Shown here in pieces: positions 2,675 to 22,147 of a stretch of 24,000 bases of DNA. Below the pieces are notes generated by a model. The model worked only from the letters and a program-made list of their open reading frames with translations. It did no database searches and had not been told where the DNA came from. Within the stretch, counting starts at the first letter, position 1. Each line of letters opens with the position of its first letter. The position numbers and the translations under genes were made by a program. Source of the stretch: an uncultured Veillonellaceae bacterium (GTDB taxonomy: Bacteria; Bacillota; Negativicutes; Veillonellales; Veillonellaceae); NCBI GenBank assembly GCA_945867815.1, contig CAMBIX010000005.1, positions 123,821-147,820 of the forward strand, written 5' to 3'.

Positions 2675-3733
2675 TTATATATCTTGTATTAATTTGTTAA
2701 GTTTATCCGCTACCTTTTCAGCCTCATTAGGATATAAATGTGAATAGATGTTTAATGTTGTTTTTATATCTTCATGACCTAACCGCTCCTTTATAAGCAG
2801 CGGTGTTACATTCATTTGAATTAGCAGCGAAGCGTGAGAATGCCGTAAATCATGAATACGTATTTTAGGTATTCCTGTTGCTTCGCTAGCTTTAGTTATA
2901 ATCGTGTTAATTGCCCATTGTGTTGTTCTAAACAATAGTTCTTTATCTCTATATTTATATAAATGAGTTTTATATTCCATCACTTCATCCCATACCTCTT
3001 TAGGCATGGTTACTGTCCGAATTGATTTAGGTGTTTTAGGCGTTTGTAATACGCCTCTATACAGCGTTTGCTTAACCGTAAGGCTTATATTATCACTATT
3101 AAAGCAATCGCCTGTTAACGCTAAGGCTTCACCAATACGTATACCCGTCCAATAAAGAAGATCTATAACTACTAATGCCGTAGGATTAAGCTTTTTACCT
3201 CTAATAAAAGCCTTATAAGTCTTATAATCCTTTAACGTCCAGAATTTAATATTACGGTATTCATCTCTTTTAGGCGCTCCACAAAGTCTAGCAGGATTTG
3301 ACGGCAATCCATAGAATTTTTCAGCAAAGTTAAAAACTGCATTTAATTGATTATGAACGGTTCGTAATGTGCTATCTTTTAATCCTCGTTCTTTAAGTTT
3401 ACCCTGCCATAATTTTATATCTATGGGTTTTATCGCATTTAAGGCCGTAGAGCCAAAAACAGGCAAGATATGAACCTTTCCTATCTGAAGCTTTGTACCT
3501 AGGGTAGAAGTCTTAATTTCCTTGCTTATAGTCCCAATATAAAGATTATAGCAATCTGAAAAAAGCATTTCTGCACTATGCAATTTTTTATTTAATTCAG
3601 CTTGTTCTGCTTCTTTTGCTTCTCTTTTAGTTTCATACCCTGTTTTACGCTTTCTTTTTCGTTGCCCTTTCCAATCTGTATAATAAAAGGTAATAGCCCA
3701 TTTCCCGTTTCTTTTGTCTTTGTATACACTCAT
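2675..3733 (-). CDS. int: Tyrosine recombinase / phage-type integrase
   Basis: N-terminus MSVYKDKRNGKWAITFYYTDWKGQRKRKRKTGYETKREAKEAE (arm-binding type). Catalytic region: TGIRIGEALAL, HDLRHSHASLL, LGHEDIKTTLNIYSHL (R..HxxR..Y). Confidence 0.95.
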   Translation of the reverse strand: MSVYKDKRNGKWAITFYYTDWKGQRKRKRKTGYETKREAKEAEQAELNKKLHSAEMLFSDCYNLYIGTISKEIKTSTLGTKLQIGKVHILPVFGSTALNAIKPIDIKLWQGKLKERGLKDSTLRTVHNQLNAVFNFAEKFYGLPSNPARLCGAPKRDEYRNIKFWTLKDYKTYKAFIRGKKLNPTALVVIDLLYWTGIRIGEALALTGDCFNSDNISLTVKQTLYRGVLQTPKTPKSIRTVTMPKEVWDEVMEYKTHLYKYRDKELLFRTTQWAINTIITKASEATGIPKIRIHDLRHSHASLLIQMNVTPLLIKERLGHEDIKTTLNIYSHLYPNEAEKVADKLNKLIQDI

Positions 3734-6973: not shown

Positions 6974-7171
6974 TTATGAGCAAACCCAAATTTCGCTGAT
7001 TTTTTTGTCATAAAGCCTTGAAAACAAAATTGCTTCCTTTACCGTCGCTTTTAACCGCCCTTCTTCAATATCCTGAACGTGTTCTAATGGTATTTGAGTA
7101 ATCCTAGAAACCTCTTCTAGGCTCAGCTTTTTTTCTTCCCTAATTCGCTTCATTGTGTTGTAAATTGTCAT
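6974..7171 (-). CDS. XRE-family HTH transcriptional regulator
   Basis: MKRIREEKKLSLEEVSRITQIPLEHVQDIEEGR is a classic HTH_3 pattern. SD GGAGG lies 6 nt before the ATG at 7171. Overlaps the 3' end of the loader gene by 32 nt. Confidence 0.8.
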   Translation of the reverse strand: MTIYNTMKRIREEKKLSLEEVSRITQIPLEHVQDIEEGRLKATVKEAILFSRLYDKKISEIWVCS

Positions 7172-7841
7172 GTGTTTCCTCCTCTAAAAATCGAAGTGGT
7201 TTACGCTGTGACTCGCCTTGGCAATTAACGATATAACAGCAATGGCTAATCCGATCTAGCATACTGGCCATATACCCAGCTTTTGTAATATCTCCTCGCA
7301 AGAGGTTTGTTGTGTATATAGTCGCTTTCTTAGCGTTGTATCGCTCGTTAACGATGGCTCGTATCTTCGTCTTAATCCAGCTGTCTTCTTTTCCATGCTC
7401 TTGTCCTAAATCGTCTAAGACAAGAAGCTGAACGGTAGATAGCTTTTGTTGCAGCTTCGCCCGCTCTTCTTCGCCAAGAGAAAAGAAGTCATCCATAAGA
7501 TTAACAAGAGAGACGAAATACACCGACAGTCCCTGTTTCATCGCTTCTCTCATAATAGCCACCGCAAAAGTGGTTTTCATAGTTCCTACCCCACCTCGAA
7601 AAATGATACCTTCGCCACGGTCTACGTGTTCTTTAAGCTTATCTGTATACGCCTTACTGGCTTTTAGAACAGGCTTTAGGCTATTAGGTATACCTAATTC
7701 TTCAACCGTTTTAAACGTATAGCCGGCAAAGCGGGTAGGAATACCTACAAGCTCGCAGGCCGTTTTCTTAGGCTTTTCAGGGCCGATGTAATACGGCTCT
7801 TCATAAATCGGCTTATAAAAGCTAGTAGAGCTGGTCGTCAT
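7140..7841 (-). CDS. DnaC/IstB-like AAA+ helicase-loader protein
   Basis: Walker A-like GGVGTMKTT, Walker B LLVLDDLGQE, then IVNERYNAKKATIYTTNL, as in the DnaC/DnaI/IstB family. The start is placed at the ATG at 7841 (MTTSS). The upstream part of the 288-aa track ORF overlaps the organizer gene and is treated as non-coding. Confidence 0.8.
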   Translation of the reverse strand: MTTSSTSFYKPIYEEPYYIGPEKPKKTACELVGIPTRFAGYTFKTVEELGIPNSLKPVLKASKAYTDKLKEHVDRGEGIIFRGGVGTMKTTFAVAIMREAMKQGLSVYFVSLVNLMDDFFSLGEEERAKLQQKLSTVQLLVLDDLGQEHGKEDSWIKTKIRAIVNERYNAKKATIYTTNLLRGDITKAGYMASMLDRISHCCYIVNCQGESQRKPLRFLEEETHDNLQHNEAN

Positions 7842-8673
7842 TTGCCCAACTATCGTCTTTATCGGCAATAGTTGATTTGCTTCGTTTTTCTCCTGCAAGA
7901 TTAAACCACTCCTTATTTCCAGTAATCGTTTTAAGCAAATATGTAGGAGGTGCTGCTTCAGTAAAATTTGCCGCATATTTAATGACCGAAGCAATTGTTT
8001 CCGCACCGTAGTGATTAAAAAGCGTATTTAACTGCAATTCCGTATTTTTACCATAACTTATTTTGGGGAAACTTGATTTATAAAGCTTAATAATATCTGC
8101 CAGAGACAGTTTAGAATCAGATGCTTCTATATTATTTCTTACTCTTATTCTGTCTCTTATATCTAAGTCTAAATTTAACTCTAATTCTGACTCTAATTCT
8201 GATTCTAATTCTAATTCTGTGTCACGTTTTGTAACAGGCTGTAACACAGGTGTCACAATGTGACGCTCATCAATTTGTTTCACATCAGACGAAGCCAGTT
8301 TTTCCTTATCTTTTTTACGTTTTTCTCGCATTCTGCGAGCTGAGTCTGTTTCACGACCAGTCATCTCAAGTGCTTGTGGAAACAATAAGTTACCGCTATC
8401 TACTAAAGTTTTGACCATTTCATATTTTTGACAAAAGGCTAAAACCATTTTTATTACTTTGGAATCTTCATTAATGATTAACGCTAGTTCTTCACTGACG
8501 TCATCTTCAATGCCATCTATTTCGATGATGCCGCTATTTAAAGCGGCTTCACTTAAGAGCCTTTGATAGACGATGACACAAGAGTCACCACCTGGCAACT
8601 GTCTCATTTTCTTAATGAGTTTTTTCTCAAAAAAATCTTTTGGCAATTTCAGCCAGATATAAACTTTTGCCAA
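7822..8673 (-). CDS. Phage-type replisome organizer (N-terminal domain) with a DnaD-like C-terminal region
   Basis: The N-terminus YIWLKLPKDFFEKKLIKKMRQLPGGDSCVIVYQRLL matches the phage replisome organizer N-domain pattern. An acidic repeat linker is present. The C-terminus LNTLFNHYGAETIASVIKYAA is DnaD-like. TTG start with SD GAGG. Confidence 0.8.
   Translation of the reverse strand: MAKVYIWLKLPKDFFEKKLIKKMRQLPGGDSCVIVYQRLLSEAALNSGIIEIDGIEDDVSEELALIINEDSKVIKMVLAFCQKYEMVKTLVDSGNLLFPQALEMTGRETDSARRMREKRKKDKEKLASSDVKQIDERHIVTPVLQPVTKRDTELELESELESELELNLDLDIRDRIRVRNNIEASDSKLSLADIIKLYKSSFPKISYGKNTELQLNTLFNHYGAETIASVIKYAANFTEAAPPTYLLKTITGNKEWFNLAGEKRSKSTIADKDDSWANDDQLY
8162..8221. repeat. Ten tandem hexamers (TCTRAN) inside the replisome organizer gene; candidate origin iterons
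   Basis: tctaag tctaaa tttaac tctaat tctgac tctaat tctgat tctaat tctaat tctgtg. These encode ELELESELESELELNLDLD on the minus strand. Confidence 0.7.
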
Positions 8674-9579: not shown

Positions 9580-9678
9580 TTAAATATAACTGTTAATTTT
9601 TACATAATTATTATACAACAAATGTTATTTAATGTAAATAGATAATATAAAATAAGTTATCTATTTTAGGTGATTATA

Positions 9679-10098
9679 ATGGATTCTATAAATGAACGCC
9701 TATTTTCTTTATTAAAGGCCAAAAATTTAAAAATAAAAAACTTAGCTAACTCTATAGGAATAAATCAAGCTAATATTTCTATGTGGAAAGCCCGTAATAC
9801 CGATCCACCGGCTAAATATATCGCCCCCATTGCCGAATTCTTAGGCGTTACTCCAGAATACTTACTTACCGGCAATCATAAGTACATGCCTCTACAGGCA
9901 GCTTATATACAGTCTTCAGCCTCTCCCCCACCGAACCTAACAGACGAAGAAACACTACTATTGACCAATTACCAAAAATTAAGCCTTATTGATAGAGTAA
10001 AAGTACGAGGGCTCACTATAGAGCTCCTCAGAGCCCAAGAAAACGCTGCTGATTTAGATACTAAAAAACACCCCATCCAAAAAGGACAGGGTGCCTAA
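9679..10098 (+). CDS. XRE/cI-like HTH repressor (paralog 2)
   Basis: RLFSLLKAKNLKIKNLANSIGINQANISMWKARNTDPPAKYIAPIAEFLGVTPEYLLTG has the same architecture as 9247-9579, including C-terminal LTDEETLLLTNYQKLSLIDRVKVRGLTIELL. SD AGGTG lies 6 nt before the ATG at 9679. Confidence 0.85.
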   Translation: MDSINERLFSLLKAKNLKIKNLANSIGINQANISMWKARNTDPPAKYIAPIAEFLGVTPEYLLTGNHKYMPLQAAYIQSSASPPPNLTDEETLLLTNYQKLSLIDRVKVRGLTIELLRAQENAADLDTKKHPIQKGQGA

Positions 10099-10126: not shown

Positions 10127-10783
10127 ATGTTTAAAAATGTAATAGAAAAAACAGGAAATAAACTTACTAACTATGCACGCAGAGGAGAAATGGTTGAGAA
10201 CCGTATTTCTGAAGAAGCCTTTGAAAAACGCCCCTATGTTTTAGATAACCTAGCAGAAGCTTTGGTTTACGACACGTTATACTGGATTTTTAAAGTAAAT
10301 AAATTAAACATTCATATTTTCCCACAAGTGCACTTGTCTTCGCTAATCAAACCTAAAAAAGACTTACCTAAAGAAGACCAACGAAGCTTATATTTTGAAG
10401 CAGCTAAATTAAGTGTAGATTTTGTTCTTGTCTCTGGCAACACAGTAAACGGCGACTATTTAAAGACACTTTGTATTATAGAGCTAGATGGCGAATCACA
10501 TAAGAATTCTTGGAAACAGCAAAAAGACAAAAGCCGAAACTATAAGCTAAACGGTTTTGAAATACCTATTTTACGTATCACAGATGATGAGCTACAGCCG
10601 TACCTAGATAAAGTAAAAAATAACGCTAGAAATAATAAAGGCAAAGAACCTGTTGATATATTCCCTTTCCAATCTAAAGAAGATAAAGAAGCTAAAATGC
10701 AATTACAGAATAAATTATTTGATAAGCTAAAAGCCAAAATCTCTCAAAGTGATTTCGATAAATTGAAAGCTAAATCAAACTAA
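10127..10783 (+). CDS. DUF2726-like protein (PD-(D/E)xK nuclease-related fold)
   Basis: IFPQVHLSSLI...LSVDFVLVS......LCIIELDGESH....QQKDKSRNYKLNGFEIPILRI matches the DUF2726 core (pqVxlxxli...vDFvlxd...pxxxIElDgxsH....rxxrDxxxxxxlxxaGipxlRi). SD AAGGAG. Confidence 0.7.
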   Translation: MFKNVIEKTGNKLTNYARRGEMVENRISEEAFEKRPYVLDNLAEALVYDTLYWIFKVNKLNIHIFPQVHLSSLIKPKKDLPKEDQRSLYFEAAKLSVDFVLVSGNTVNGDYLKTLCIIELDGESHKNSWKQQKDKSRNYKLNGFEIPILRITDDELQPYLDKVKNNARNNKGKEPVDIFPFQSKEDKEAKMQLQNKLFDKLKAKISQSDFDKLKAKSN

Positions 10784-10975
10784 CGGACTAAGTGATTATG
10801 AAGTTGGCGGACAGTGCTAGTCTAGCGCAGTCTGACTAATACTGTATGACCAACTGTAGCAACCAACCAACGGGCGGGCGGTAGTAAGGCTCCTCCTTAA
10901 AAGTGTTATATATCACCGACAAATATTGACTTCTACGTTAAACTATGTTAAAGGCATTTTAAAGGAGGATTTATC

Positions 10976-11428
10976 ATGAACAAATACCCAATTATGGAAA
11001 TCGCTAATTGGTTTTTGTCCAAAGAGGCCATGACTCATAAGAAAATTCAAAAGCTAACATATTATGCTGAAGCGTGGAGCCAAGCTTTATACGATACAGG
11101 AATTATTAGCGATTCACATTTTGAAGCTTGGGCACATGGCCCTGTATCACCTGATTTATATAAACATTTCAAACAATACGGTTGGAACAAAATAGAACAA
11201 GTAAAAGAGGCTCCCAAAGTAGACGAAGAAGCAGATGAATTATTAAGCTCTGTCTGGATTACCTATGGAAATAAAAGTGCTAATGAATTAGAAGTTTTAA
11301 CACATTCAGAAAGCCCCTGGCAACAAGCTCGAGCAAAAAACAATTGTCAAGATGGAGATCATTCAACAGAATATATTTTGCCAAAAGATATGGCTGCTTA
11401 TTACCGCAGCATTTATATAGGCGACTAA
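10976..11428 (+). CDS. Panacea-domain (DUF4065, SocA/GepA-like) antitoxin-type protein
   Basis: IANWFLSKEAMTHKKIQKLTYYAEAWSQALYDTGIISDSHFEAWAHGPVSPDLYKHFKQYG matches the DUF4065 signature (lKLQKLLYYAqgwxLaxxgxpLFxexfeAWxhGPVxpxvYxxyk). SD AGGAGG. Confidence 0.85.
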   Translation: MNKYPIMEIANWFLSKEAMTHKKIQKLTYYAEAWSQALYDTGIISDSHFEAWAHGPVSPDLYKHFKQYGWNKIEQVKEAPKVDEEADELLSSVWITYGNKSANELEVLTHSESPWQQARAKNNCQDGDHSTEYILPKDMAAYYRSIYIGD

Positions 11429-11432
11429 ATAA

Positions 11433-11834
11433 ATGTATAAAATAAAACCAACACCACTGACTAATGAGAGTACGATTTCTCAAAGAGGTATTCCTTTAGT
11501 TAGAACACAAAATAAGCGTTTTAGATTAACGATATCTATCAATCTTGATAAAAACTATTGTTTTCAAAAATTAAATAAAGAAGATTTAAAACAGTTAGAT
11601 AATTTTATATCCGAAACAGTTGGTAAAGACTTGTCTATTTCAGAAGTAGATACGTTATTTTTGCGAAATAAAGGGCCTGTAAAAACATCAGAAACAATAA
11701 AAGGAAAGAAGAGAGATGTAGTGCATTACGGGAAAGATAAGAAAGCTTTTAGAATACATGGCTTTTATAACGATGATGGTTATTTTGTAATTTATCAAAT
11801 TGACGCTAAACATAAAAAGCATAAGCAAAAATAG
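11433..11834 (+). CDS. Hypothetical 133-aa protein; candidate toxin partner of the Panacea-domain protein
   Basis: The start lies 4 nt after the upstream stop with no independent SD, which suggests coupling. A basic protein ending in RDVVHYGKDKKAFRIHGFYNDDGYFVIYQIDAKHKKHKQK. Family not recognised. Confidence 0.6.
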   Translation: MYKIKPTPLTNESTISQRGIPLVRTQNKRFRLTISINLDKNYCFQKLNKEDLKQLDNFISETVGKDLSISEVDTLFLRNKGPVKTSETIKGKKRDVVHYGKDKKAFRIHGFYNDDGYFVIYQIDAKHKKHKQK

Positions 11835-11911: not shown

Positions 11912-11940
11912 TTGACAATTACTTTTAATTGCTATATACT
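11912..11940 (+). promoter_or_regulatory. Strong sigma70/sigmaA-type promoter of the ToxI-like repeat array
   Basis: TTGACA (11912-11917), a 17-nt spacer, then TATACT (11935-11940). The predicted TSS falls at the start of repeat 1. Confidence 0.7.
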
Positions 11941-11949
11941 TAATGTTAT

Positions 11950-12057
11950 AAAAGCGGTTAGCCTATCCAACCAAAATAGGAGTAAAAAAGCGGTTAGCCT
12001 ATCCAACCAAAATAGGAGCAAAAAAGCGGTTAGCCTATCCAACCAAAATAGGAGCAA
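11950..12057 (+). ncRNA. toxI: Type III antitoxin RNA (ToxI/antiQ-like): three tandem 36-nt repeats
   Basis: The unit AAAAGCGGTTAGCCTATCCAACCAAAATAGGAG(T/C)AA starts at 11950, 11986 and 12022, an exact 36-nt period. The only difference is T versus C at 11983. Each unit contains CCTAT/ATAGG pairing and an AAAAT motif. A 5-nt partial fourth unit follows. The array lies between a promoter and a terminator, directly upstream of the toxN-like gene. Confidence 0.85.
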
Positions 12058-12065
12058 AAAAGTAA

Positions 12066-12098
12066 AAGGAAGGGCGCACCCCTTCCTTTCTTTTTTTT
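12066..12098 (+). terminator. Intrinsic terminator between the repeat array and the toxN-like gene
   Basis: AAGGAAGGG (12066-12074), loop CGCAC, CCCTTCCTT (12080-12088), then TCTTTTTTTT. The arrangement matches the ToxIN architecture, in which the terminator limits toxin transcription. Confidence 0.8.
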
Positions 12099-12108
12099 AG
12101 GAGAGTTT

Positions 12109-12672
12109 ATGAAAATCTATACAATTGATACTGCGTATATTGCTTATTTAAGAACTATTGATAAAAGAGTACCTATTCAACATAAAAATTTAGTCAACAG
12201 GCCTTATGCCGGCATTATTGTAATGGAAAATCAGCAAAAATATTTTATTCCGCTCTCTTCTCCTAAGCCGAAACATATACACATGAAAAATCAATTAGAT
12301 TTTATAAAAATTGCTGACGGTAAACTAGGTGTTTTGAATCTTAACAATATGATTCCTGTGCCTGATACTGTCTACAAAGAAATAAATGTACTAGCACTAT
12401 TAAAAAGTAAATCTTCAACAGATAATCAATATGGCGGTTTATTAGACTTACAAGAAAAATGGCTAACTAAAAACAAAGATTTTATTTATACTAAAGCAAG
12501 AGCCTTATATAAAAAATATAAGGAAGAACGTCTTCCCTATTCAATTTATAAACGTTGTCTTTCTTATACTGAACTAGAATTAGGATTAAAAGAGTATTCC
12601 ATACATACAGATAAACAGCCAGAATTAACTATAAATAAACGGCAGTCACAAGGTATGGGGCGCGAACGATAA
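12109..12672 (+). CDS. toxN: ToxN/AbiQ-family type III toxin endoribonuclease
   Basis: MKIYTIDTAYIAYLRTIDKRVP, YFIPLSSPKPKH and LGVLNLNNMIPV parallel ToxN MKFYTISSKYIEYLKEFDDKVP, YLAPLTSPKKWH and LGLINLKFMIPI (as recalled). SD AGGAGAG. Confidence 0.9.
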   Translation: MKIYTIDTAYIAYLRTIDKRVPIQHKNLVNRPYAGIIVMENQQKYFIPLSSPKPKHIHMKNQLDFIKIADGKLGVLNLNNMIPVPDTVYKEINVLALLKSKSSTDNQYGGLLDLQEKWLTKNKDFIYTKARALYKKYKEERLPYSIYKRCLSYTELELGLKEYSIHTDKQPELTINKRQSQGMGRER

Positions 12673-12674
12673 TC

Positions 12675-14864
12675 TTATAGACTCCATCCACCTTTTACCC
12701 GCTCTTCTACTCGTTCCATTTCTGTCTTTTCTTTATCTTGGTCTTCTTCCTCTACGATATGCATTTGAGGCCCTACAGGCACTCTATCATCCATCACTTT
12801 AGAAAACATATTAGAGATAGATTGATTTGCTTTAGGTGTCATATGACCGCTAACGGTTGCACGATGTGCAGCCGTTTTATTTTTTTGTCCGTTTATTTTT
12901 TGTGCTAATACTTTATACCGCTTGCTATAATCTCTAACTTGAACTAATAGCTGTCTTTTAGGTGTCCGATATACATTTTTTACTTGTAAATATTTACGGC
13001 CGTCTTTAGATTCCGTAGGCACAACTTCTACCCGATATATATCTGCTTGTCCTTGAACGATAGGATCACCAATACGAACAGCAAGGATAGATACAGGCTT
13101 TTTGTTTTCCTTATACATCTTTTCAATAGCCTCTATATTTTCTGTTTCGGTATTAGTAATCGAAATATATTGTTCTCGTTCCTTAACGCCTGTATCAATA
13201 TATTGGATATTACGGCTTAGATTTAGATTGTCTTTTAATGGTATTACCCCATCTAGCTTATTATATATACTAACCGTAGTCGGCAAGCGATCCGCGTACA
13301 AGATACGATTAGGGTCATCATCAAAAAGCTGTTCCATTTTTTTATAAATTTTAGCATATTGCGACCGCTTATAAGACACAGTCTTAGATAAAGACGCTAT
13401 TTCTTTTTCTACTGCTGTATTTTGATTTGTAAAATGTTTCTTAACCGCTTCAAATTCAAAACTTAAAGCCCCATTTTTATGCGTTTCTTGACGTAGTTTA
13501 GACAACGCTTCCACATAAGGCCGTTGCTGCTCTTTAAGGAGCTTTATTCTAGCCTTACTTAAATGATAAAGCTGGCCGTTAAAGACGCTGGCATCATATT
13601 CACGGAAAGCTTTATCCATTTTAGCATAGAGTTTACGTTGTTCATTAATTTGTTTTTGAAATTCATAAACTGTTTTTGCCAACGCCTCATAACGTCCCTT
13701 TGTGGCATGCGAATAAGCCATACGCAATATATCTTTTTTAGGCGTATAGCTATGTTTTACTTGTTCAATTTGTTTATTTGTTTTAGAAATGGAATCACTA
13801 AAAGCTGCCATACGTTCTTCTGCTTTGGCCATAACATCGCCAACAGTAATAATAACGGCCTCCATTTCATCGGCTTTCGCTGTATATTCGGCTTCTTTCT
13901 TTGCCCGTTCTTTTGCTCGTTCTTGTTGAATTTCTTTAGCTAATCTACGGATTAACATGTCATGAGCAAAGATGGCCATTTTAAACTCTTCTTCAGTTTT
14001 AAAAATCTCTGTCCCTACCATATTTTTTTCAGCAGGTTCAATGAACTCACCGCTGTCATCAGTCGTACTAGTAGCTTCATCTACATCTGCTGCAATTAAG
14101 TTGCCCATAGAACGAATAAGTGCCCGCTTTTTAGGATTTTTTACACTGTCTCCTAGCTGTGGGGCTGGTTCTCTATCAAGTAGTTCAGCCTCTTCATACT
14201 GGCCATTTTTAATAAGCTCTGCCCGTTGTTCTTTAAGCGTTTTTTCACTTACGCGAATATCCATATTAAGCTTTTCAAAACGATTATTTACAATATCCGC
14301 CCATTGTTTACGAATGATGGGTAAGCTATTTCTATCATTCCAAAAAGGATTAACTTGATAACCTCCACTTACAGCCCCATTTTTCAACACGTTATACCGA
14401 GCAAAATACGTATTTTTATCTAGCTTGCGGTTTTTATCTATTGTTTTTTCTGAAAACATGATATGAACATGAATATTACGATGGTCATCAGCAAACATCG
14501 CGGTTTTATCATGTACAGCATAGGTATAAGCATGCTTATCAGCTATGCCTGTTTCTTTCAAGAACTCTTCAACGCACTTAAGATTATCTTCTAAAGAGAG
14601 TTCTTCTTGCAGTCCTAGGCGGATTTCACGATAAGCACGGCCATTTATACGGCGGTTATCTTCAGCGGCCTGCCAGAAGTCTAACTCATCTATTGCCCAG
14701 TCAGGCATATTCCCAGAGGTACAGTAAACTAGGTCTTCTTCACGATTACGCATGTGTTCATACTCGCCTTGGCGAGTAATATATTCTGCATGCGTCCGTG
14801 TATTAAGCTTATTTCCATTGCGTTGTACGCCATGGGGTAAGCTTTCGCAGTAGTAAATACTCAT
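12675..14864 (-). CDS. MobA/MobL-family (MOBQ-type) conjugative relaxase with a long coiled-coil C-terminal region
   Basis: The N-terminus MSIYY carries the catalytic Tyr region. REIRLGLQEELSLEDNLKCVEEF. The histidine triad region is HDKTAMFADDHRNIHVHIMFSEK (HxDxxxxHxH). SD AAGGAGGTG. Confidence 0.9.
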   Translation of the reverse strand: MSIYYCESLPHGVQRNGNKLNTRTHAEYITRQGEYEHMRNREEDLVYCTSGNMPDWAIDELDFWQAAEDNRRINGRAYREIRLGLQEELSLEDNLKCVEEFLKETGIADKHAYTYAVHDKTAMFADDHRNIHVHIMFSEKTIDKNRKLDKNTYFARYNVLKNGAVSGGYQVNPFWNDRNSLPIIRKQWADIVNNRFEKLNMDIRVSEKTLKEQRAELIKNGQYEEAELLDREPAPQLGDSVKNPKKRALIRSMGNLIAADVDEATSTTDDSGEFIEPAEKNMVGTEIFKTEEEFKMAIFAHDMLIRRLAKEIQQERAKERAKKEAEYTAKADEMEAVIITVGDVMAKAEERMAAFSDSISKTNKQIEQVKHSYTPKKDILRMAYSHATKGRYEALAKTVYEFQKQINEQRKLYAKMDKAFREYDASVFNGQLYHLSKARIKLLKEQQRPYVEALSKLRQETHKNGALSFEFEAVKKHFTNQNTAVEKEIASLSKTVSYKRSQYAKIYKKMEQLFDDDPNRILYADRLPTTVSIYNKLDGVIPLKDNLNLSRNIQYIDTGVKEREQYISITNTETENIEAIEKMYKENKKPVSILAVRIGDPIVQGQADIYRVEVVPTESKDGRKYLQVKNVYRTPKRQLLVQVRDYSKRYKVLAQKINGQKNKTAAHRATVSGHMTPKANQSISNMFSKVMDDRVPVGPQMHIVEEEDQDKEKTEMERVEERVKGGWSL

Positions 14865-15278: not shown

Positions 15279-15986
15279 ATGGAACCAATACATAGTAATT
15301 TCCCAAAAGGTAATCCTAGTGACACGTTTGAAAAAGGTGCTGGATGGAAATTTGAAAACATGTTGTATAACATGGCCTACGAACGAGATATTGCAAAGAA
15401 ACGAAATGTTATTACCTTGTTCTTGTGCATTATCTGCGTTATTGCAGTCGTGCTGGCTTATACAACCCTGTCTTATAAGACATACGTTGTTCGTGTCGAT
15501 AACGCCACAGGACAAGTACAAACAGGAGGTGAATTAAAAGCAACTAATTATTCCCCTCACGAAGCAGAAATCAAATATGCTTTAAAAAATTACATATTTG
15601 ATATTCGAACAATCCCACTTGATCCAGTGCAATTTAAACGCAATTGGGATGCAGCGCAATCTTACATGACACCTGAAGCCATGAATAAATTGTCTGCTTT
15701 AGTGCAAAAGGAAAATCCAGCTTCACAAATTGGTAAGGTTACAATTCAACCAACAATTAAATCAATCCAGCTTCAGCCTGGAACGAAATCAACTTATCAA
15801 ATTCGTTGGTCTGAGGAAACGTATAATATCAGCGGAAACAAAACAGGTAAGCCTATTAATTATGTGGGTCTATTTACAATTAAGATTGATCCACCAACAA
15901 AAGAAGAACAGCTTCTTGTAAATCCGTTAGGTATTTACATTACAGACTTAGCAATTACAAAAGAATCTGAAGGAGATACTAAATAA
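15279..15986 (+). CDS. virB8: VirB8/TrbF-family T4SS inner-membrane protein
   Basis: A single N-terminal TM helix (ITLFLCIICVIAVVLAY). The periplasmic domain ends in EEQLLVNPLGIYITDLAI, the NPLG motif of TrbF/VirB8. SD GGAGGTG. Confidence 0.85.
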   Translation: MEPIHSNFPKGNPSDTFEKGAGWKFENMLYNMAYERDIAKKRNVITLFLCIICVIAVVLAYTTLSYKTYVVRVDNATGQVQTGGELKATNYSPHEAEIKYALKNYIFDIRTIPLDPVQFKRNWDAAQSYMTPEAMNKLSALVQKENPASQIGKVTIQPTIKSIQLQPGTKSTYQIRWSEETYNISGNKTGKPINYVGLFTIKIDPPTKEEQLLVNPLGIYITDLAITKESEGDTK

Positions 15987-16828
15987 TGCAAGCATTAAAA
16001 AACAAAAAATTAATAGCTGCTACGCTCCTTGCAGCTTCGCAGCTAAGTCTGTTGGCTCCTTCTGCTTTTGCAAATAACGATAATGTATATGGCAAAGCCA
16101 ACTATACATTAAATGCAGCAACAAAAGAAGCCGCAGCCTCTGTTTATCAGTACCACCCTAATAGCGTCTACCATGTAGATACGCAAAAGAATTTTCTTAC
16201 AGATATAGAACTACATCCTGGTGAAAAAATTACTTTTATTGGTGGTGGTAACACCTCTCAATGGATGGTAACAACAAGTACAGTTAACGGTGTGCCTCAT
16301 GTGTACATTAAACCGATTGATTATGGCATTATGACTAATTTAATCGTCAATACAAATGGACGTAGTTACCATTTTGCTGTATACAGCACAAATAAATATA
16401 ATCACATTAAGTTTGAATATCCTGATGAAATACGAAAAGCTATGATGCGTGAACAGGCTCGTCCTGTTTACAAAAATAAAGCGGAAGAAGAATGGTTAAC
16501 TACGCATACACAAATCATCAACGGGATAAGTCAAGCAAAGAATCTTGATTATAATTACACCATGAAAAGCCATGGCGTAGCGAAAGAAAACATGCCAAGT
16601 GAATTTTTTAGTGACGGAACTCGCACTTATATTAAAATTCCAGCAGGCAATAAATATGATTTTCCTACGCTGTATCTTGTAAATGATAAAGGAAAATTAA
16701 CACTTATTAATTACACCGTTTACGGTCAATACTTAGTCGCTGAGCGAGTTTTTACCCGTGCAAGATTACAGTACACAACCAATAGTTATATTGATGTCGT
16801 TCCTAAAAAAGTTAAGGAGGTGAAATAA
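15986..16828 (+). CDS. virB9: VirB9/TrbG-family T4SS outer-membrane core protein
   Basis: Signal peptide MQALKNKKLIAATLLAASQLSLLAPSAFA. YHPNSVYHVDTQKNFLTDIELHPGEKITFIGGGNTSQWMV...YIKP...TNLIVNTNGRSYHFAV is the VirB9 N-domain pattern. Confidence 0.9.
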   Translation: MQALKNKKLIAATLLAASQLSLLAPSAFANNDNVYGKANYTLNAATKEAAASVYQYHPNSVYHVDTQKNFLTDIELHPGEKITFIGGGNTSQWMVTTSTVNGVPHVYIKPIDYGIMTNLIVNTNGRSYHFAVYSTNKYNHIKFEYPDEIRKAMMREQARPVYKNKAEEEWLTTHTQIINGISQAKNLDYNYTMKSHGVAKENMPSEFFSDGTRTYIKIPAGNKYDFPTLYLVNDKGKLTLINYTVYGQYLVAERVFTRARLQYTTNSYIDVVPKKVKEVK

Positions 16829-18228
16829 TGAGTTTTATTTCTAACCTACAAGATAAACTTAAGCGAAAAAAATCTGAAGATGAGTTAGATATGAATGGCA
16901 GTTTATATGAAGATGAATTAGAGCCCAGAGAGCCTAAGACAGTAAAATCAGAATCTAACGAAGATGATTTAATTGAGCTTAAAGACGAAGTGCTCGATGG
17001 GGATAATGTTTCTAAATTTAGTAAGAAGAGAATTATCGGTGCCGCCGCTGGCTGCGTGTTTGCCATTAGCTGTATATATGGCTATGCTAGTTCGGCCGGC
17101 AGCGATAAAAATACAGCGAATAAAACAGATCCCCCTCCTAGTATTCAAGGCCAAATTGATAAAAATAAGGGGCCTGCTGCTGGCATGCCTGAGAATTATT
17201 CTGATATCCAAAAGATGAAAGAAAAACAACAAAAAGAAAAACAGCAACAGCAGGTTCAAAAACCAGTAACGCCACAAACAAGGCCAACACAAACGGCAAC
17301 AATTACACCAACGAATCGGCAAACGCCATCGTATGCGACAACCGTTTCAACGCCTATTATGGCAACGACAACAACGAATAATAACGCTGCTGAAGAAAAG
17401 GCCAAAGCTGAAGCCGAAGCGGCTAAAGCTGCTATTGAGGAACAGCAAAAAATTGCTATGTCCCCTATCGCTTTTAAGCTTGCTGCTGATGCCGTTTCAG
17501 GAACCTCTGTAAATTCTGATTCGCCAAATTCTAAAGATAGTCAATCACAAGAAGCCACGTCTGCTGAAGTCTTTAATACATCTAACGGAACACTTTCACC
17601 CCGTTACTTAGAAGATGCTAATGCCGACTATGGAACGAATCAGACAGGCCAATATATCTTACAGGCAGGCAGTGTAATTAATGCCACATTAATTACTGGT
17701 ATATCAACAGATATACCTAATAATATTGTAACGGCTACTGTCCGCAGCAATGTATACGACAGCCGTACACACAGTCATCTTTTAATTCCACAAGGATCTA
17801 AAATTATTGGTCAAGTAGGTAATCAAGGTGGTAAAGGGGTTAAACGTATTGCTGTTACATGGACACGAATTATATTGCCTGATGGTCAATCGATTATGCT
17901 TCCAAAGTTACCTACCGTTGATGGTACAGGGATGCCTGGCATGAAAGATAAATATGACCAACATACCAATAGCCTATTTAAAACAGCTTTTGCTACTTCG
18001 TTAGTTACGGCTATGGCTCAAGCGGCCACGGGTGGCACCTCTGGTGATGATACTCGTTCCCCTGGTCAAGAAGCCGTATCGGGTGCTGTCGCTCAATTCC
18101 AAGACGCAGCTAATAGTTTAATTGGTCAAGCTGCTAATCAACAAGCAACCGTTGAAATTAGACCAGGCAAAGATTTTAATATCTTTGTAACGCAGGATCT
18201 AAGTATTTCGCAGTATAACGGTTTATAA
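16828..18228 (+). CDS. virB10: VirB10/TrbI-family T4SS core protein
   Basis: An N-terminal TM helix, then a Pro/Thr/Gln-rich linker. C-terminal domain: AGSVINATLITGISTDIPNNIVTATVRSNVYDS...LLIPQGSKIIGQ...RIAVTWTRIILPDGQSI...VDGTGMPGMKDKYDQH. Confidence 0.9.
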   Translation: MSFISNLQDKLKRKKSEDELDMNGSLYEDELEPREPKTVKSESNEDDLIELKDEVLDGDNVSKFSKKRIIGAAAGCVFAISCIYGYASSAGSDKNTANKTDPPPSIQGQIDKNKGPAAGMPENYSDIQKMKEKQQKEKQQQQVQKPVTPQTRPTQTATITPTNRQTPSYATTVSTPIMATTTTNNNAAEEKAKAEAEAAKAAIEEQQKIAMSPIAFKLAADAVSGTSVNSDSPNSKDSQSQEATSAEVFNTSNGTLSPRYLEDANADYGTNQTGQYILQAGSVINATLITGISTDIPNNIVTATVRSNVYDSRTHSHLLIPQGSKIIGQVGNQGGKGVKRIAVTWTRIILPDGQSIMLPKLPTVDGTGMPGMKDKYDQHTNSLFKTAFATSLVTAMAQAATGGTSGDDTRSPGQEAVSGAVAQFQDAANSLIGQAANQQATVEIRPGKDFNIFVTQDLSISQYNGL

Positions 18229-18246: not shown

Positions 18247-20556
18247 ATGTATAGACTCCTATTACCACTCGTATCTATCTGTATTGGTCTTAGTTACTGC
18301 ACACAGCTTTTTGCCGAAAAAGTAGGGTATGCCCCTAACTTTTTAGGTAAACCGTTATTTACTATCGGTCACACAAGTTACTATTGGTTTTACAAATTTA
18401 TTCCATGGTGGCACACCTATCATCAGTACGTACCTAATGCCTTTGATATATGGCCCTTAGCCGTAGCTGTTGTCTTATCCATTCTTTTCTTATGGATTAC
18501 AAAACCTGTACCTGAACTTACCAGTCATGGGAGTGCTCGTTGGGCAGAATATAAAGATTTATTAAAGATGGATTTAATTAGTGGCAGCGGCGTTACAGTT
18601 GGTCTATATGACAGTTCCTTTAAGAAAAGTATGACAAGTTTCTTGCGTTGGTTAGATCTTCGTAAAAACGAAAAAACAAGTTATTTAGAAATGGCGTTTG
18701 ATAAGCGAAGAGATAGACAAATAGATAACTATAAAGAAATGCGAAATATTCTTGAAGGCAAGCTTTCACTTCCTAATCTATCTAGTAAAAGACGAGAGCG
18801 TATAAAAGAACAATTAAAGCATATAGATAAATGTTTAAATGAGCCGTTAAAAAAAATTGATGTAAAGAAAGAAAGTAAATTTATTTACTATTTCTACGTA
18901 TGGCCCTATAAAAAATTTAGTAAATTTTACGCCTCCCTCTCCCATTTTTATTTACGAGATAATTCTAATAAACATATGGCTGTTATTGCACCTACTCGCT
19001 CTGGTAAAGGTGTTGGTCTTATCATTCCTACACTTTTGGGTAGCTGGAAGAGCAGCTGTATCGTTAACGATATTAAATCGGAAAACTGGGGTGTAACCGC
19101 AGGGTATCGTAAATATAAAATGGGTCATACAACTATCAAATTTGAACCAACGGCTTCTGATGGCTCTTCGGCTCGGTGGAATCCACTAGATGAAATTCAT
19201 ATTGGTACACCATCGGAAGTTTCACAAGCTCAAAATTTAGCAGCGATTATCGCTGACTATGAAGGCAAAGGAAAACCCGACCACTGGACGGCTAATGCCG
19301 CTACGGTTATCATGTGCGTTATTTTGTTTTTAAAATATGCCCATGCGAAAGAGCCAGATAAATATCCTAACAATCCATCTTTATATACAGTTGCTTCTTT
19401 TATGAAAGCAACACTTGAAAAAGGTGAAGGTGGATTAAATGCAAAAGGTTTTATTGACACGTTAAACGATGTAGCTACCTATGAACATGTGCCTAAAGAA
19501 GGTATTAATATCAAAGAATGGAATAAAGATAAAAATCGGTATGAAACACGGCATTTCACACAGAAAGATTTAAGGAATATGTATACAGAAGCCTCATCTT
19601 TAGATGAGTTCCCTGGCAATCACCCGATTATTTTCCAAACGATGATTGAAATTACAGCCAAACCGGATAATGAACTAGGATCTATTATTTCAACCGCCAA
19701 TACGGCCTTAAAAGAATACCTAGACCCGGTACTGGCTGAAAATACGTTTGTTAGTGATTTTGATATTGACGACATTATGAATTATAGAAAGCCTGTTTCC
19801 TTATATCTGGTAACACCACCATCAGACTTACTACGGTTAGCACCTATTTTTAGACTATTCTTTGAAATGATGGTACGCCATCATGCACGAAGTATCGGTA
19901 CCTATGTAAATGGACAAGCCAAATCGGAATATAAGCATAAATGCTTATTTCTAATGGACGAATTTTCATCTCTTGGGAATCTGCAATCCTTTGCTGCTAC
20001 CCTATCCTACATCGCAGGGTACGGCATGAAAGTGTTCCTTATTAATCAAGGGCTCCCGCAGATTAATAGCATTTATGGCAAAGATAATCAAATTTTAATG
20101 AACTGTCATTTGCAAATCTTTTATGCACCAAACGATAATGATACCGCTAAATATGGCGAATCCTTATTAGGGAATAAAACGATTATTGTAAAATCTAAGT
20201 CCACGAATAGTAACGGTGGCTGGTTTAATAACGGCAGCACATCCGAACAGGCCACGGCTCGAGCCTTAATGACAGCCGACGAACTAAAGCGTCTTGGCGA
20301 CCAAGAAATTCTCGTTGCCTCTGGCTCCCCTCCTGTTCTTACGGACAAGATTAAATATTATGAAAATAACTATTTTCTTGACCGCTTGATGAATGCCCCT
20401 ATTGTTAGTGATATTGTTCGTCATATCCCTTCAAATGCTGATATTCCCATTATTCCTAATCCTAGGAGAATGGAAACCTTAGCTAAGGCTAAGGTAAAAG
20501 CGAGTAAAAAATTTGTTTATGACGATAAGGCTGTACAGACGAAGCTTGCTCAATAA
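18247..20556 (+). CDS. virD4: VirD4/TraG-family type IV coupling protein
   Basis: N-terminal TM helices. Walker A VIAPTRSGKGVGLIIPTLL. Walker B CLFLMDEFSSLG. VFLINQGLPQI. Confidence 0.9.
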   Translation: MYRLLLPLVSICIGLSYCTQLFAEKVGYAPNFLGKPLFTIGHTSYYWFYKFIPWWHTYHQYVPNAFDIWPLAVAVVLSILFLWITKPVPELTSHGSARWAEYKDLLKMDLISGSGVTVGLYDSSFKKSMTSFLRWLDLRKNEKTSYLEMAFDKRRDRQIDNYKEMRNILEGKLSLPNLSSKRRERIKEQLKHIDKCLNEPLKKIDVKKESKFIYYFYVWPYKKFSKFYASLSHFYLRDNSNKHMAVIAPTRSGKGVGLIIPTLLGSWKSSCIVNDIKSENWGVTAGYRKYKMGHTTIKFEPTASDGSSARWNPLDEIHIGTPSEVSQAQNLAAIIADYEGKGKPDHWTANAATVIMCVILFLKYAHAKEPDKYPNNPSLYTVASFMKATLEKGEGGLNAKGFIDTLNDVATYEHVPKEGINIKEWNKDKNRYETRHFTQKDLRNMYTEASSLDEFPGNHPIIFQTMIEITAKPDNELGSIISTANTALKEYLDPVLAENTFVSDFDIDDIMNYRKPVSLYLVTPPSDLLRLAPIFRLFFEMMVRHHARSIGTYVNGQAKSEYKHKCLFLMDEFSSLGNLQSFAATLSYIAGYGMKVFLINQGLPQINSIYGKDNQILMNCHLQIFYAPNDNDTAKYGESLLGNKTIIVKSKSTNSNGGWFNNGSTSEQATARALMTADELKRLGDQEILVASGSPPVLTDKIKYYENNYFLDRLMNAPIVSDIVRHIPSNADIPIIPNPRRMETLAKAKVKASKKFVYDDKAVQTKLAQ

Positions 20557-20730: not shown

Positions 20731-21123
20731 ATCGCATCTTTAACGGATTTATCTCGAAAAAAGAAACAGCTCGACTACATTAAGAGAGAAGAACAGAAAT
20801 TTAAATTAGAACTCGAAAGCCTTAGAAAGCAAAAACGCCAACAAGAACGTGTTCTGCGAGAAGCGGAACTATCCCATGTTGGCCGTCTAATTGAAATGAC
20901 AGGCTATGACATTAAAAGTATGCCTCTTATTGTAGGAGCTATTATCGAAGCCCAAAAACAAATTGCTAATAATGAAGCAGTTAAGGATGTATTTCAAAAA
21001 CATTTTGATGACTTTGTAAAAGAACATCCAATCCCAGATAGCATTATTGAAGATTTTGAATGGGCTAACAAAGAAGATATAGACGATACACCACTAGAAC
21101 AAGATGGTGATGTAAATGATTAA
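20731..21123 (+). CDS. Small coiled-coil conjugal transfer protein (Ti-type TraD-like, tentative), with a probable non-canonical ATC start
   Basis: The frame is open from 20680. SD GAGGTG (20720-20725) lies 5 nt before ATC at 20731. Translation IASLTDLSRKKKQLDYIKREEQKFKLELESLRKQKRQQERVLREAELSHVGRLIEMTGYDIKSMPLIVGAIIEA resembles small TraD proteins (KRxRDTxxKIxLGGLvvKAGl...llGALl). The first ATG (20896) has no SD. The stop overlaps the virB11 start. Confidence 0.5.
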   Translation: MASLTDLSRKKKQLDYIKREEQKFKLELESLRKQKRQQERVLREAELSHVGRLIEMTGYDIKSMPLIVGAIIEAQKQIANNEAVKDVFQKHFDDFVKEHPIPDSIIEDFEWANKEDIDDTPLEQDGDVND

Positions 21124-22147
21124 TAGTGAAATTACAGGCCAAAACGATAAATTAGATATATTACTATCTAAAGGATCGGAAGAGCTTGTAAAGCTATTTC
21201 ATCGGCCAGATATAACTGAAATCTATGTTAATGATGATGGCTATATCTGGTACCTCTCGGCGGATGAAGGGAAAGTAAAAAGTACTATCCATTTAGACAG
21301 TGAACGAATAATGGCTATCATGCGGTATATTGCTGGGGACGCTGGCAAGATTATTACTGAAGAAATTCCATCCATTAGCTGCGATATTCAAGGATATGGC
21401 TACCGCTTTCAAGGGGAAATACCACCGATTGTCTTAAATCCACAGTTTAATGTACGAAAAAAAGCAACAAAGATATTTACCCTTGAAGATTATGTGAAGA
21501 ACGGCACGATAACACCTTATTATAAGGAGTATTTAGAAAACGCCGTTAAAAATCGTAAAAATATCCTTGTTGTAGGTGGTACGGCGACAGGTAAGACAAC
21601 CTTCTTAAATGCCATTTTAGAGGCTATTTCAGAAATCACGCCTTACCATCGCATTATTTCCTTAGAAGATCTTCCAGAACTTCAATGCCGGGCCGATGAT
21701 TATTCACCTATGTTTACTGTCCAAGAAACCAATGATGGAAAACAAATCAAATACGATATGACACGGCTTCTAATGGACTGTATGCGACGTAGCCCCGATA
21801 GAATCGTTGTGGGCGAAGTTAGAGATGGCTGTGCCTATACGATGCTAAAAGCGTGGAATACAGGCCACGAAGGCGGTTGTTGCACAGTGCATGCCAACAG
21901 TGCTGAGCAAGGTCTAAGCCGTATTAAAGCCTTAGCCCAAGAAAATGCCGACGCGCCTAAAAACAACGATAACGGCGTTAAAGAACTAATCGGAGATGCT
22001 ATAGATGTAGTTGTTTCCATCGTCCATACCGACTTAGGTAATGGCCGCCGTGGTCGTATTGTAAAAGAAATTTTAGAAGTTGATAAATTTGATACAACAA
22101 AAGGTATCTATATATTACATAAAATACCGCAAACACTAGCGGTATAG
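21116..22147 (+). CDS. virB11: VirB11/TrbB-family T4SS ATPase
   Basis: Walker A VVGGTATGKTTFLNAI. RIVVGEVRDG. His box GHEGGCCTVHANSA. Confidence 0.92.
   Translation: MINSEITGQNDKLDILLSKGSEELVKLFHRPDITEIYVNDDGYIWYLSADEGKVKSTIHLDSERIMAIMRYIAGDAGKIITEEIPSISCDIQGYGYRFQGEIPPIVLNPQFNVRKKATKIFTLEDYVKNGTITPYYKEYLENAVKNRKNILVVGGTATGKTTFLNAILEAISEITPYHRIISLEDLPELQCRADDYSPMFTVQETNDGKQIKYDMTRLLMDCMRRSPDRIVVGEVRDGCAYTMLKAWNTGHEGGCCTVHANSAEQGLSRIKALAQENADAPKNNDNGVKELIGDAIDVVVSIVHTDLGNGRRGRIVKEILEVDKFDTTKGIYILHKIPQTLAV

Follow-up and report, generated by a model that had tools for sequence, protein, structure and literature searches.

What is the small basic protein that is encoded immediately behind a Panacea gene on an integrative conjugative element (ICE) of an uncultured Veillonellaceae bacterium, and is it a toxin of a kind not described before? 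The question arises from a 24,000-nucleotide (nt) stretch of contig CAMBIX010000005.1 (GenBank assembly GCA_945867815.1, positions 123,821 to 147,820), here called the window, whose own numbering is used for its features. A reading made from the letters alone (the sequence-only reading) had proposed that the two genes form a toxin-antitoxin (TA) or defence pair of the PanAT type, in which a Panacea antitoxin (PanA) is coupled to a partner (PanT) that could not be assigned to any toxin family and might be an undescribed toxin. One part of this proposal has held: the two genes are tightly coupled, widely conserved and laid out as in PanAT operons. The other part, that the partner is a new toxin, has not, as the partner belongs to the family NF046006 and to the PanT cluster T1. 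The window copy is a further occurrence of an already named and already catalogued partner family, and not a new toxin.

A Panacea gene and its coupled neighbour

The two genes were found where the sequence-only reading had placed them, with the peptide motifs that it quoted. The elements of the operon are the following:

10961..10968, forward strand: Shine-Dalgarno (SD) sequence of panA, AAGGAGGA, read from the sequence
10976..11428, forward strand: panA, encoding a stand-alone Panacea/DUF4065 protein of 150 amino acids (aa), Pfam PF13274
11429..11432, forward strand: spacer ATAA, 4 nt from the stop codon of panA to the start of the toxin-like gene, read from the sequence
11433..11834, forward strand: gene of the 133-aa basic protein, from the list of open reading frames (ORFs)

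The 150-aa protein encoded by panA contains KIQKLTYYAEAWS and FEAWAHGPVSPDLYKHF in its ORF translation. Its assignment to the Panacea/DUF4065 proteins is borne out by a match to the Pfam family PF13274 (SocA_Panacea) over residues 24-116, with an E-value of 8.2e-19 and 69 bits against a cut-off of 25.7, as well as by a match to PHROG 1281 with E 1e-37. Judged by its sequence, this Panacea protein is not a SocA, because it scores 55 bits against the SocA equivalog model NF047745, whose cut-off is 190. The protein is acidic (isoelectric point (pI) 5.3), carries no extra N-terminal domain and is predicted to act as an antitoxin and/or a sensor. In the systems that have been tested, stand-alone Panacea proteins neutralise directly, and in one dissected case the protein contacts an unstructured N-terminal segment of the toxin (PMC10440598); a sensor role for Panacea has been favoured by Ernits et al.

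The strong SD AAAGGAGG lies 7 nt upstream of the ATG of panA at 10976, and the operon has no other strong ribosome-binding site. The TAA of panA ends at 11428 and is followed by ATAA and by the ATG of the second gene at 11433, upstream of which no SD comparable to that of panA was found when the sequence was read. The start 4 nt after the stop codon, with no SD of its own, is thus as the sequence-only reading had described it, and because of the short spacer and the lack of a comparable SD before the second ATG, the natural reading is that translation of the second gene would be coupled to that of panA. The 133-aa protein, which ends in ...RDVVHYGKDKKAFRIHGFYNDDGYFVIYQIDAKHKKHKQK, is indeed basic (pI 9.8) and has no hydrophobic segment.

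The 192-nt leader of panA includes a segment, CTCCTCCTTAAAAG (10890-10903), that is nearly complementary to the SD region TTTTAAAGGAGGA (about 10956-10968), and pairing of the two could sequester the ribosome-binding site of panA in read-through transcripts. The idea is unproven, because the overall fold z-score of the leader is only -1.0, which is not significant for a structured RNA; a scan of the whole window with Rfam gave no match. A palindrome, GTGTTATATATCAC, is found at 10903-10916, just 5' of a weak -35-like TTGACT (10926-10931).

The MAG6450 family and the PanT cluster T1

The 133-aa protein matches the NCBIfam model NF046006, 'MAG6450 family protein', with E 3.1e-36 and 124 bits, about three times the cut-off of 40, and the match spans model positions 1-103 of 103. 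By this score it is a clear member of the MAG6450 family, itself a branch of PanT cluster T1, and not a protein without a family, as had been supposed. An exhaustive profile search, which covered 1.84 billion representative proteins, returned 148 clusters (50% identity) at E <=1e-3 and 101 at E <=1e-10, nearly all members being stand-alone proteins of 110-160 aa. Named members come from Listeria innocua, L. monocytogenes, L. seeligeri, Lactococcus lactis, Parvimonas micra, Mycoplasma yeatsii, Metamycoplasma buccale and uncultured Caudoviricetes, and the branch extends over Listeria, Lactococcus, prophages of Streptococcus, lactobacilli, Parvimonas, Mollicutes and the ICE of the window. The family name appears to derive from locus MAG6450 of Mycoplasma agalactiae PG2, which is recorded as a "conserved hypothetical protein"; the locus has been used as a marker insertion site (PMC4251992).

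Searches of Pfam, PADLOC, PHROGs and PDB sequences with the 133-aa protein yielded nothing significant, and weak matches to RnlA_toxin_N, Rtt106 and an 'endolysin' PHROG were rejected as noise or by-products of neighbouring genes. The last of these matches (PHROG 13463, E 0.0034, positions 204-300 of its 318) may reflect fused or mis-called ORFs in the PHROG and not a lysis function, because members of the MAG6450 family usually directly follow endolysin genes.

Twenty-seven genes of the family were gathered from 29 sources, namely the window, metagenome contigs, genomes and one phage record. A Panacea gene lies directly upstream, on the same strand, in all 26 genes whose upstream DNA is readable, and the single exception is located on a 710-nt contig, where the upstream ORF runs off the end. 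With 26 of 26 readable loci, the pairing is far beyond chance. The sequence-only reading had proposed to look for the pair in other genomes and had taken its absence there as an argument against a functional link; instead, the two genes co-occur in every readable locus. The loci represent about 13 lineages, with the partner 27-54% and PanA 48-57% identical to the window copy, and the spacing between the two genes in homologous loci ranges from -29 to +7 nt. In every pair PanA is acidic (pI 4.7-6.3), while the partner is basic (pI 9.3-10.1) and has no membrane segment. The flanking genes vary between lineages, so that conservation is limited to the two genes themselves. A phage holin/endolysin cassette immediately precedes the pair in at least seven lineages, one of which has the pair placed between its lysin and its integrase, and the spot after the lysis cassette is the usual place for a prophage "moron" or defence cargo.

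The metagenomic contig L025 (209-2817), and likewise L026, carries two Panacea genes in tandem: in L025 an unannotated ORF of 99 aa comes about 550 nt after the first of them, and the second overlaps a 154-aa gene of the MAG6450 family. Possibly, PanA genes are stacked here in an array that includes a second partner of a different kind.

The link to PanAT systems is provided by the work of Kurata et al. (2022, PNAS 119:e2102212119; PMC8832971), who listed 1,268 predicted PanA-PanT pairs with toxins in 88 clusters, of which T1 is the first and apparently the largest. Their Dataset S1 contains one pair for Granulicatella balaenopterae DSM 15827, which is placed in T1 with the order A|T and a gap of 1 nt (PMC8832971). 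In our collection the locus of this strain (L015) comprises a Panacea gene for a protein of 152 aa, a gap of 1 nt and a partner of 127 aa. This partner shares 48% identity with the window protein and reaches 114 bits with NF046006, and the PanA of the locus is 53% identical; judged by genome, gene order and the 1-nt gap, this pair corresponds to the T1 row of the dataset. T1 also lists pairs from M. agalactiae 5632, M. mycoides capri GM12, M. feriruminatoris, Lactococcus, Streptococcus ovis and many other phyla, and Table S1 of the supporting information labels its tested members 'mRNase' (PMC8832971). The HHpred annotation string behind this label was not located in Dataset S1, and T1 accessions were not found in the text of the NetFlax supplementary tables. 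The PanT of Listeria phage B025 was rejected as a relative, as it belongs to cluster T9 (MazF-like), and tblastn against phages matched only Streptococcus phage Javan59.

T1 is, on sequence grounds, broader than the MAG6450 family. Its member in the Salmonella phage vB_SemP_Emek (L021, 14764-15637) is orf161, which was identified through its 62-nt overlap with the Panacea gene, as given in the dataset row; taken alone, orf161 aligns only weakly with the MAG6450 family, at E 2.8e-4 with hhalign and 14 bits with NF046006. When a profile of 50 sequences of the proteobacterial branch was compared by hhalign with the MAG6450 profile, the two aligned over 94 columns with 94.6% probability and E 7e-8, and because of this profile-profile match we regard T1 as a single superfamily comprising two or more divergent branches. 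The proteobacterial/phage branch is without three residues of the window protein that are discussed below (H98, R107 and H127) at the aligned positions, and keeps another set, consisting of an Arg in AFRF, an Arg in GYR, an Asp and a C-terminal L-Y-x-H. Both tested members of the proteobacterial branch (Emek and Escherichia coli MOD1) were found to be non-toxic, and the branches may therefore not share the same activity.

Fold, conserved residues and putative activity

The question of what the 133-aa protein does turns on these of its parts:

11433..11504, forward strand: N-terminal tail, residues 1-24 of the toxin-like protein, predicted to be disordered
11505..11834, forward strand: core domain, residues 25-133 plus stop codon (NF046006; AlphaFold)
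11664..11666, forward strand: codon of R78, conserved in 91% of members
11724..11726, forward strand: codon of H98, invariant, where the second strand of the hairpin ends; candidate catalytic residue
11751..11753, forward strand: codon of R107, invariant, within the motif FRIHG
11802..11822, forward strand: C-terminal D124-x-x-H127-x-x-H130 (DAKHKKH), with D124 and H127 invariant and H130 present in 81%

Conservation was counted over 113-143 members, and all six residues (R78, H98, R107, D124, H127 and H130) are present in the window protein; H98, R107, D124 and H127 vary hardly or not at all across members. In the first AlphaFold model, built from 19 sequences (overall predicted local distance difference test score (pLDDT) 77), residues 1-3 and 12-24 have a pLDDT below 50, and the Leu-Thr motifs of the tail are conserved among 143 members (L9 in 88%, T10 in 63%, L22 in 90%). 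Residues 1-24 are a candidate PanA-binding segment, because the tail is conserved and disordered and because the Panacea protein dissected previously contacts an unstructured toxin N-terminus.

The second AlphaFold model, which covers residues 25-133 and drew on 124 aligned sequences, has a pLDDT of 93.2 and a predicted template modelling score of 0.85. It comprises a short β-strand, two α-helices and four β-strands (β-α-α-β-β-β-β), followed by a C-terminal tail, and has one extra β-hairpin when set against the RelE core (β-α-α-β-β-β). Among the overlapping Foldseek matches in PDB, the RelE/ParE superfamily is the only recurring family, with weak template modelling (TM) scores of 0.35-0.56; the matches include M. 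jannaschii RelE (3bpq_D, TM 0.47/0.56, probability 0.60-0.84), E. coli RelE (4fxe_F) and S. pneumoniae HigB (6af3/6af4, TM up to 0.43), and also HigB2, BrnT and ParE. By analogy with the His/Tyr C-termini of RelE-family ribonucleases (RNases), the D124/H127/H130 motif is a candidate general acid/base, and the His/Arg/Asp/His set on a small basic α/β protein would fit an endoribonuclease of the RelE/YafQ/HigB type.

A likely relative has been characterized from another side. In a recent study (mSphere 2026; PMC13621843), the protein MMSYN1_0416 of JCVI-syn3.0 / M. mycoides capri, whose gene adjoins the DUF4065 gene MMSYN1_0417, was described as a distant RelE-like interferase, with HHpred matches that are non-significant and comprise RelE homologues only, a conserved C-terminal catalytic His, an extra terminal His and an added β-hairpin; the study treats the two genes as 'non-cognate' and makes no connection to PanAT (PMC13621843). 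The model and the motif of the window protein show the same features, i.e. the D-x-x-H-x-x-H end and the extra hairpin. Because of these shared features, and because the pair of M. mycoides GM12 is listed in T1, MMSYN1_0416 is probably a member of the MAG6450 family. The suggestion that the partner is an undescribed toxin has thus been overtaken on three sides: its family has a name, it is listed in T1 of Kurata et al., and a probably related Mycoplasma gene has already been called RelE-like.

We favour, with moderate confidence, the view that the pair is a PanAT operon of a type II-like TA or abortive-infection system, in which a divergent RelE/HigB-like mRNase is neutralised by PanA. Starting from the established domain and family identities, operon anatomy, conserved pairing, fold topology and conserved residues, we infer its toxicity, RNase chemistry, neutralisation and trigger along the following lines. 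Both proteins would be made from one message by way of the single strong ribosome-binding site, the partner through coupling. The 150-aa acidic Panacea protein would bind the 133-aa toxin directly and keep it inactive, with the conserved disordered N-terminal tail probably involved in the binding. The toxin would be a strongly diverged endoribonuclease of the RelE/HigB kind, which blocks translation through mRNA cleavage, with H98, R107, D124 and H127 as the likely active site and with contributions from R78 and H130. The toxin would be freed, and the cell arrested, when the element is lost or when Panacea senses a phage cue.

A number of results weigh against this view, and its alternatives draw on them. 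PADLOC has no model for PanA or for the partner, none of the T1 pairs has been confirmed as a complete TA system, and no member of the MAG6450 subfamily has been reported to be toxic or to be neutralised. Among the three T1 members tested in E. coli, those from E. coli MOD1 and phage Emek were non-toxic, and that from C. cadaveris was toxic but was not rescued by its PanA (PMC8832971). MMSYN1_0416 is quasi-essential and its DUF4065 neighbour dispensable, which is the reverse of a classic TA system, and the table of that study flags a possible polar effect for this pattern of essentiality (PMC13621843). These T1 results and this pattern of essentiality would suit a genuine conserved partnership in which the basic protein is not a growth-arresting toxin but a nucleic-acid-binding effector or regulator that works with Panacea, for instance in the biology of prophages or ICEs. 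Such an explanation is also in line with the viability of a transposon mutant of MAG6450 in M. agalactiae, whose only defect is in co-culture, where its growth on goat mammary epithelial cells is reduced (PMC3179502), and with the lack of a significant match of the 133-aa protein to any toxin family. We consider it rather unlikely, however, since the antitoxin-first order, the coupled translation, the acidic/basic pairing and the location on mobile elements are traits of PanAT, the invariant His/Arg/Asp/His set suggests an enzyme and not a passive binder, one T1 member is toxic after all, and the non-toxic members come from the distant proteobacterial branch, whose aligned positions do not conserve H98, R107 and H127.

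To a second explanation we assign a similarly low probability. It retains a toxin that is neutralised by PanA, but this toxin would not be a ribosome-dependent mRNase of the RelE type; it would be a distinct small nuclease or effector, which acts on tRNA, rRNA or DNA or independently of the ribosome, and uses a His/Arg/Asp/His site of its own. Neither of the two models has a significant Foldseek match in PDB, with none at E <0.1 for the model of pLDDT 93, which finds no PDB or viral structure at E <0.07, and the search of the viral structures in BFVD returned nothing informative. The best TM scores to RelE and HigB are the low values given above, and the hairpin is additional to the RelE core. 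In a per-member scan of 113 members with E-values up to 1, no Pfam family of the RelE type was found; profile searches of PDB with profiles of 113 and 50 sequences returned no toxin chain, and hhalign comparisons with E. coli RelE, YafQ and YoeB, made with manually entered sequences, gave E 0.26-0.85 and no signal. The only match found with the 113 sequences, to MCM4 (HY.K...R.HG), was rejected as a chance motif. Set beside these results are the recurrence of the RelE/ParE superfamily among the structural matches and the fit of the conserved residues to an endoribonuclease.

Somewhat more doubtful than either of these is a wider proposal, according to which the MAG6450/T1 proteins are a class of small non-RelE nucleases with an H-R-D-H site, Panacea is a phage sensor and not a simple antidote, and the two together are a widespread abortive-infection module of prophages and ICEs, with an effector fold and a trigger that have not been described. 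That the adjacency is fortuitous, or that the second ORF is not a real gene, can be dismissed in view of the NF046006 match (E 3e-36), the 148 homologue clusters at 50% identity and the presence of PanA upstream in every locus examined.

By itself, the window pair adds little beyond one more occurrence. The MAG6450 branch, which is widespread and keeps the invariant His/Arg/Asp/His set, is the obvious branch of T1 to test, and the T1 members that were tested came from a distant branch or were studied in a heterologous host. If the MAG6450 proteins are toxic, as in the preferred RelE/HigB-like reading, the family name would gain a function, and, if MMSYN1_0416 is a member, a puzzling quasi-essential gene of the minimal cell JCVI-syn3.0 would be explained. 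A common defence cargo of prophages and ICEs, for which PADLOC is at present without a model, would also be added to the defence catalogues.

The carrier element and comparison with known systems

The pair is cargo on an integrative conjugative element, which in the window carries the following genes and sites:

2675-3733, reverse strand: tyrosine integrase
7140-8006, reverse strand: IstB-like ATPase
9670-10098, forward strand: cI-like helix-turn-helix (HTH) protein (Pfam)
10127-10783, upstream of the pair: restriction-endonuclease-like protein of 218 aa, DUF2726 (E 5e-14)/DUF559 (E 7.6e-5)
11912-11940: near-consensus promoter TTGACA-17-TATACT of a type III TA module
11950-12062: three tandem 36-nt repeats of the type III TA module, 98-100% identical
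12065-12089: terminator hairpin of the type III TA module
12109-12672: ToxN/AbiQ toxin of the type III TA module, 187 aa (Pfam ToxN E 1.8e-41, PADLOC AbiQ E 5.9e-34)
12675-14864, reverse strand: MobA/MobL relaxase
15279-18228, forward strand: VirB8, VirB9 (CagX) and VirB10 (TrbI)
18247-20556, forward strand: VirD4 coupling protein
21116-22147, forward strand: VirB11-like ATPase

The VirD4 protein of the window shares 59% identity with its counterpart on a Megamonas funiformis plasmid, and the content of guanine and cytosine (GC) is about 35%. In combination with VirB9 and VirB10, these values suggest a diderm Firmicute (Negativicutes) as host. Carriage of the pair on a plasmid was rejected, as neither tblastn nor megablast gave a match in PLSDB. 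The description of the surroundings as an ICE cargo island with two other toxin or nuclease modules proved correct, the DUF2726/DUF559 gene lying upstream and ToxN/AbiQ downstream, and a position flanked by a nuclease-like gene (DUF2726) and a type III TA system (AbiQ) is typical of defence cargo. The DUF2726 gene, for which PADLOC gave no match, accompanies the PanAT pair in the near-identical copies of the element (L001-L003) and not in other lineages. It is preceded by two ORFs with a similar HTH motif, of which only that at 9670-10098 was confirmed by Pfam as cI-like. Directly 3' of the pair, the type III TA module is complete (11912-12672); its repeat RNA matched no Rfam family, and no terminator was found between the stop codon of PanT and the promoter at 11912-11940. 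At the edge of the element, a 383-aa ORF (299-1450) has a Cas12f1-like TNB domain of the TnpB/IscB type (E 3e-11). The region of this ORF has a GC content of 45%, against about 34% elsewhere, and it is probably an insertion of the IS200/IS605 type.

Known systems serve as points of comparison. The type VI TA system SocAB of Caulobacter has in common with the window pair the Panacea domain, which is present in both SocA and the window PanA. The partners are unrelated, however: a partner of the SocB type blocks the DnaN clamp, while that of the window is a MAG6450-family protein, and no evidence points to ClpXP adaptor action by the window pair.

To RelE, HigB, YafQ and YoeB the 133-aa protein appears similar in being, according to its model, a small basic α/β protein with two helices on an antiparallel sheet, with conserved Arg and His residues and a putative catalytic-type His near the C-terminus, encoded 3' of an acidic predicted antitoxin. 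It differs from them in the absence of detectable similarity between sequence profiles, in the extra β-hairpin and the 25-residue disordered N-terminal tail, and in its predicted antitoxin, which is Panacea and not RelB, HigA, DinJ or YefM, and the structural similarity is below the significance level of Foldseek.

The closest known counterpart is the T1 group of Kurata et al., of which NF046006, a family whose name carries no function, is a branch. The window copy differs from it in residing on a conjugative element and not in a prophage, and the tested Emek and E. coli MOD1 members belong to the distant proteobacterial branch. The two have several traits in common: the stand-alone Panacea gene comes first, the partner follows within a few nucleotides and is of the same family, conservation of the pair extends across phyla and to prophages, and the Granulicatella pair is an orthologue with 48% identity in the partner and 53% in PanA.

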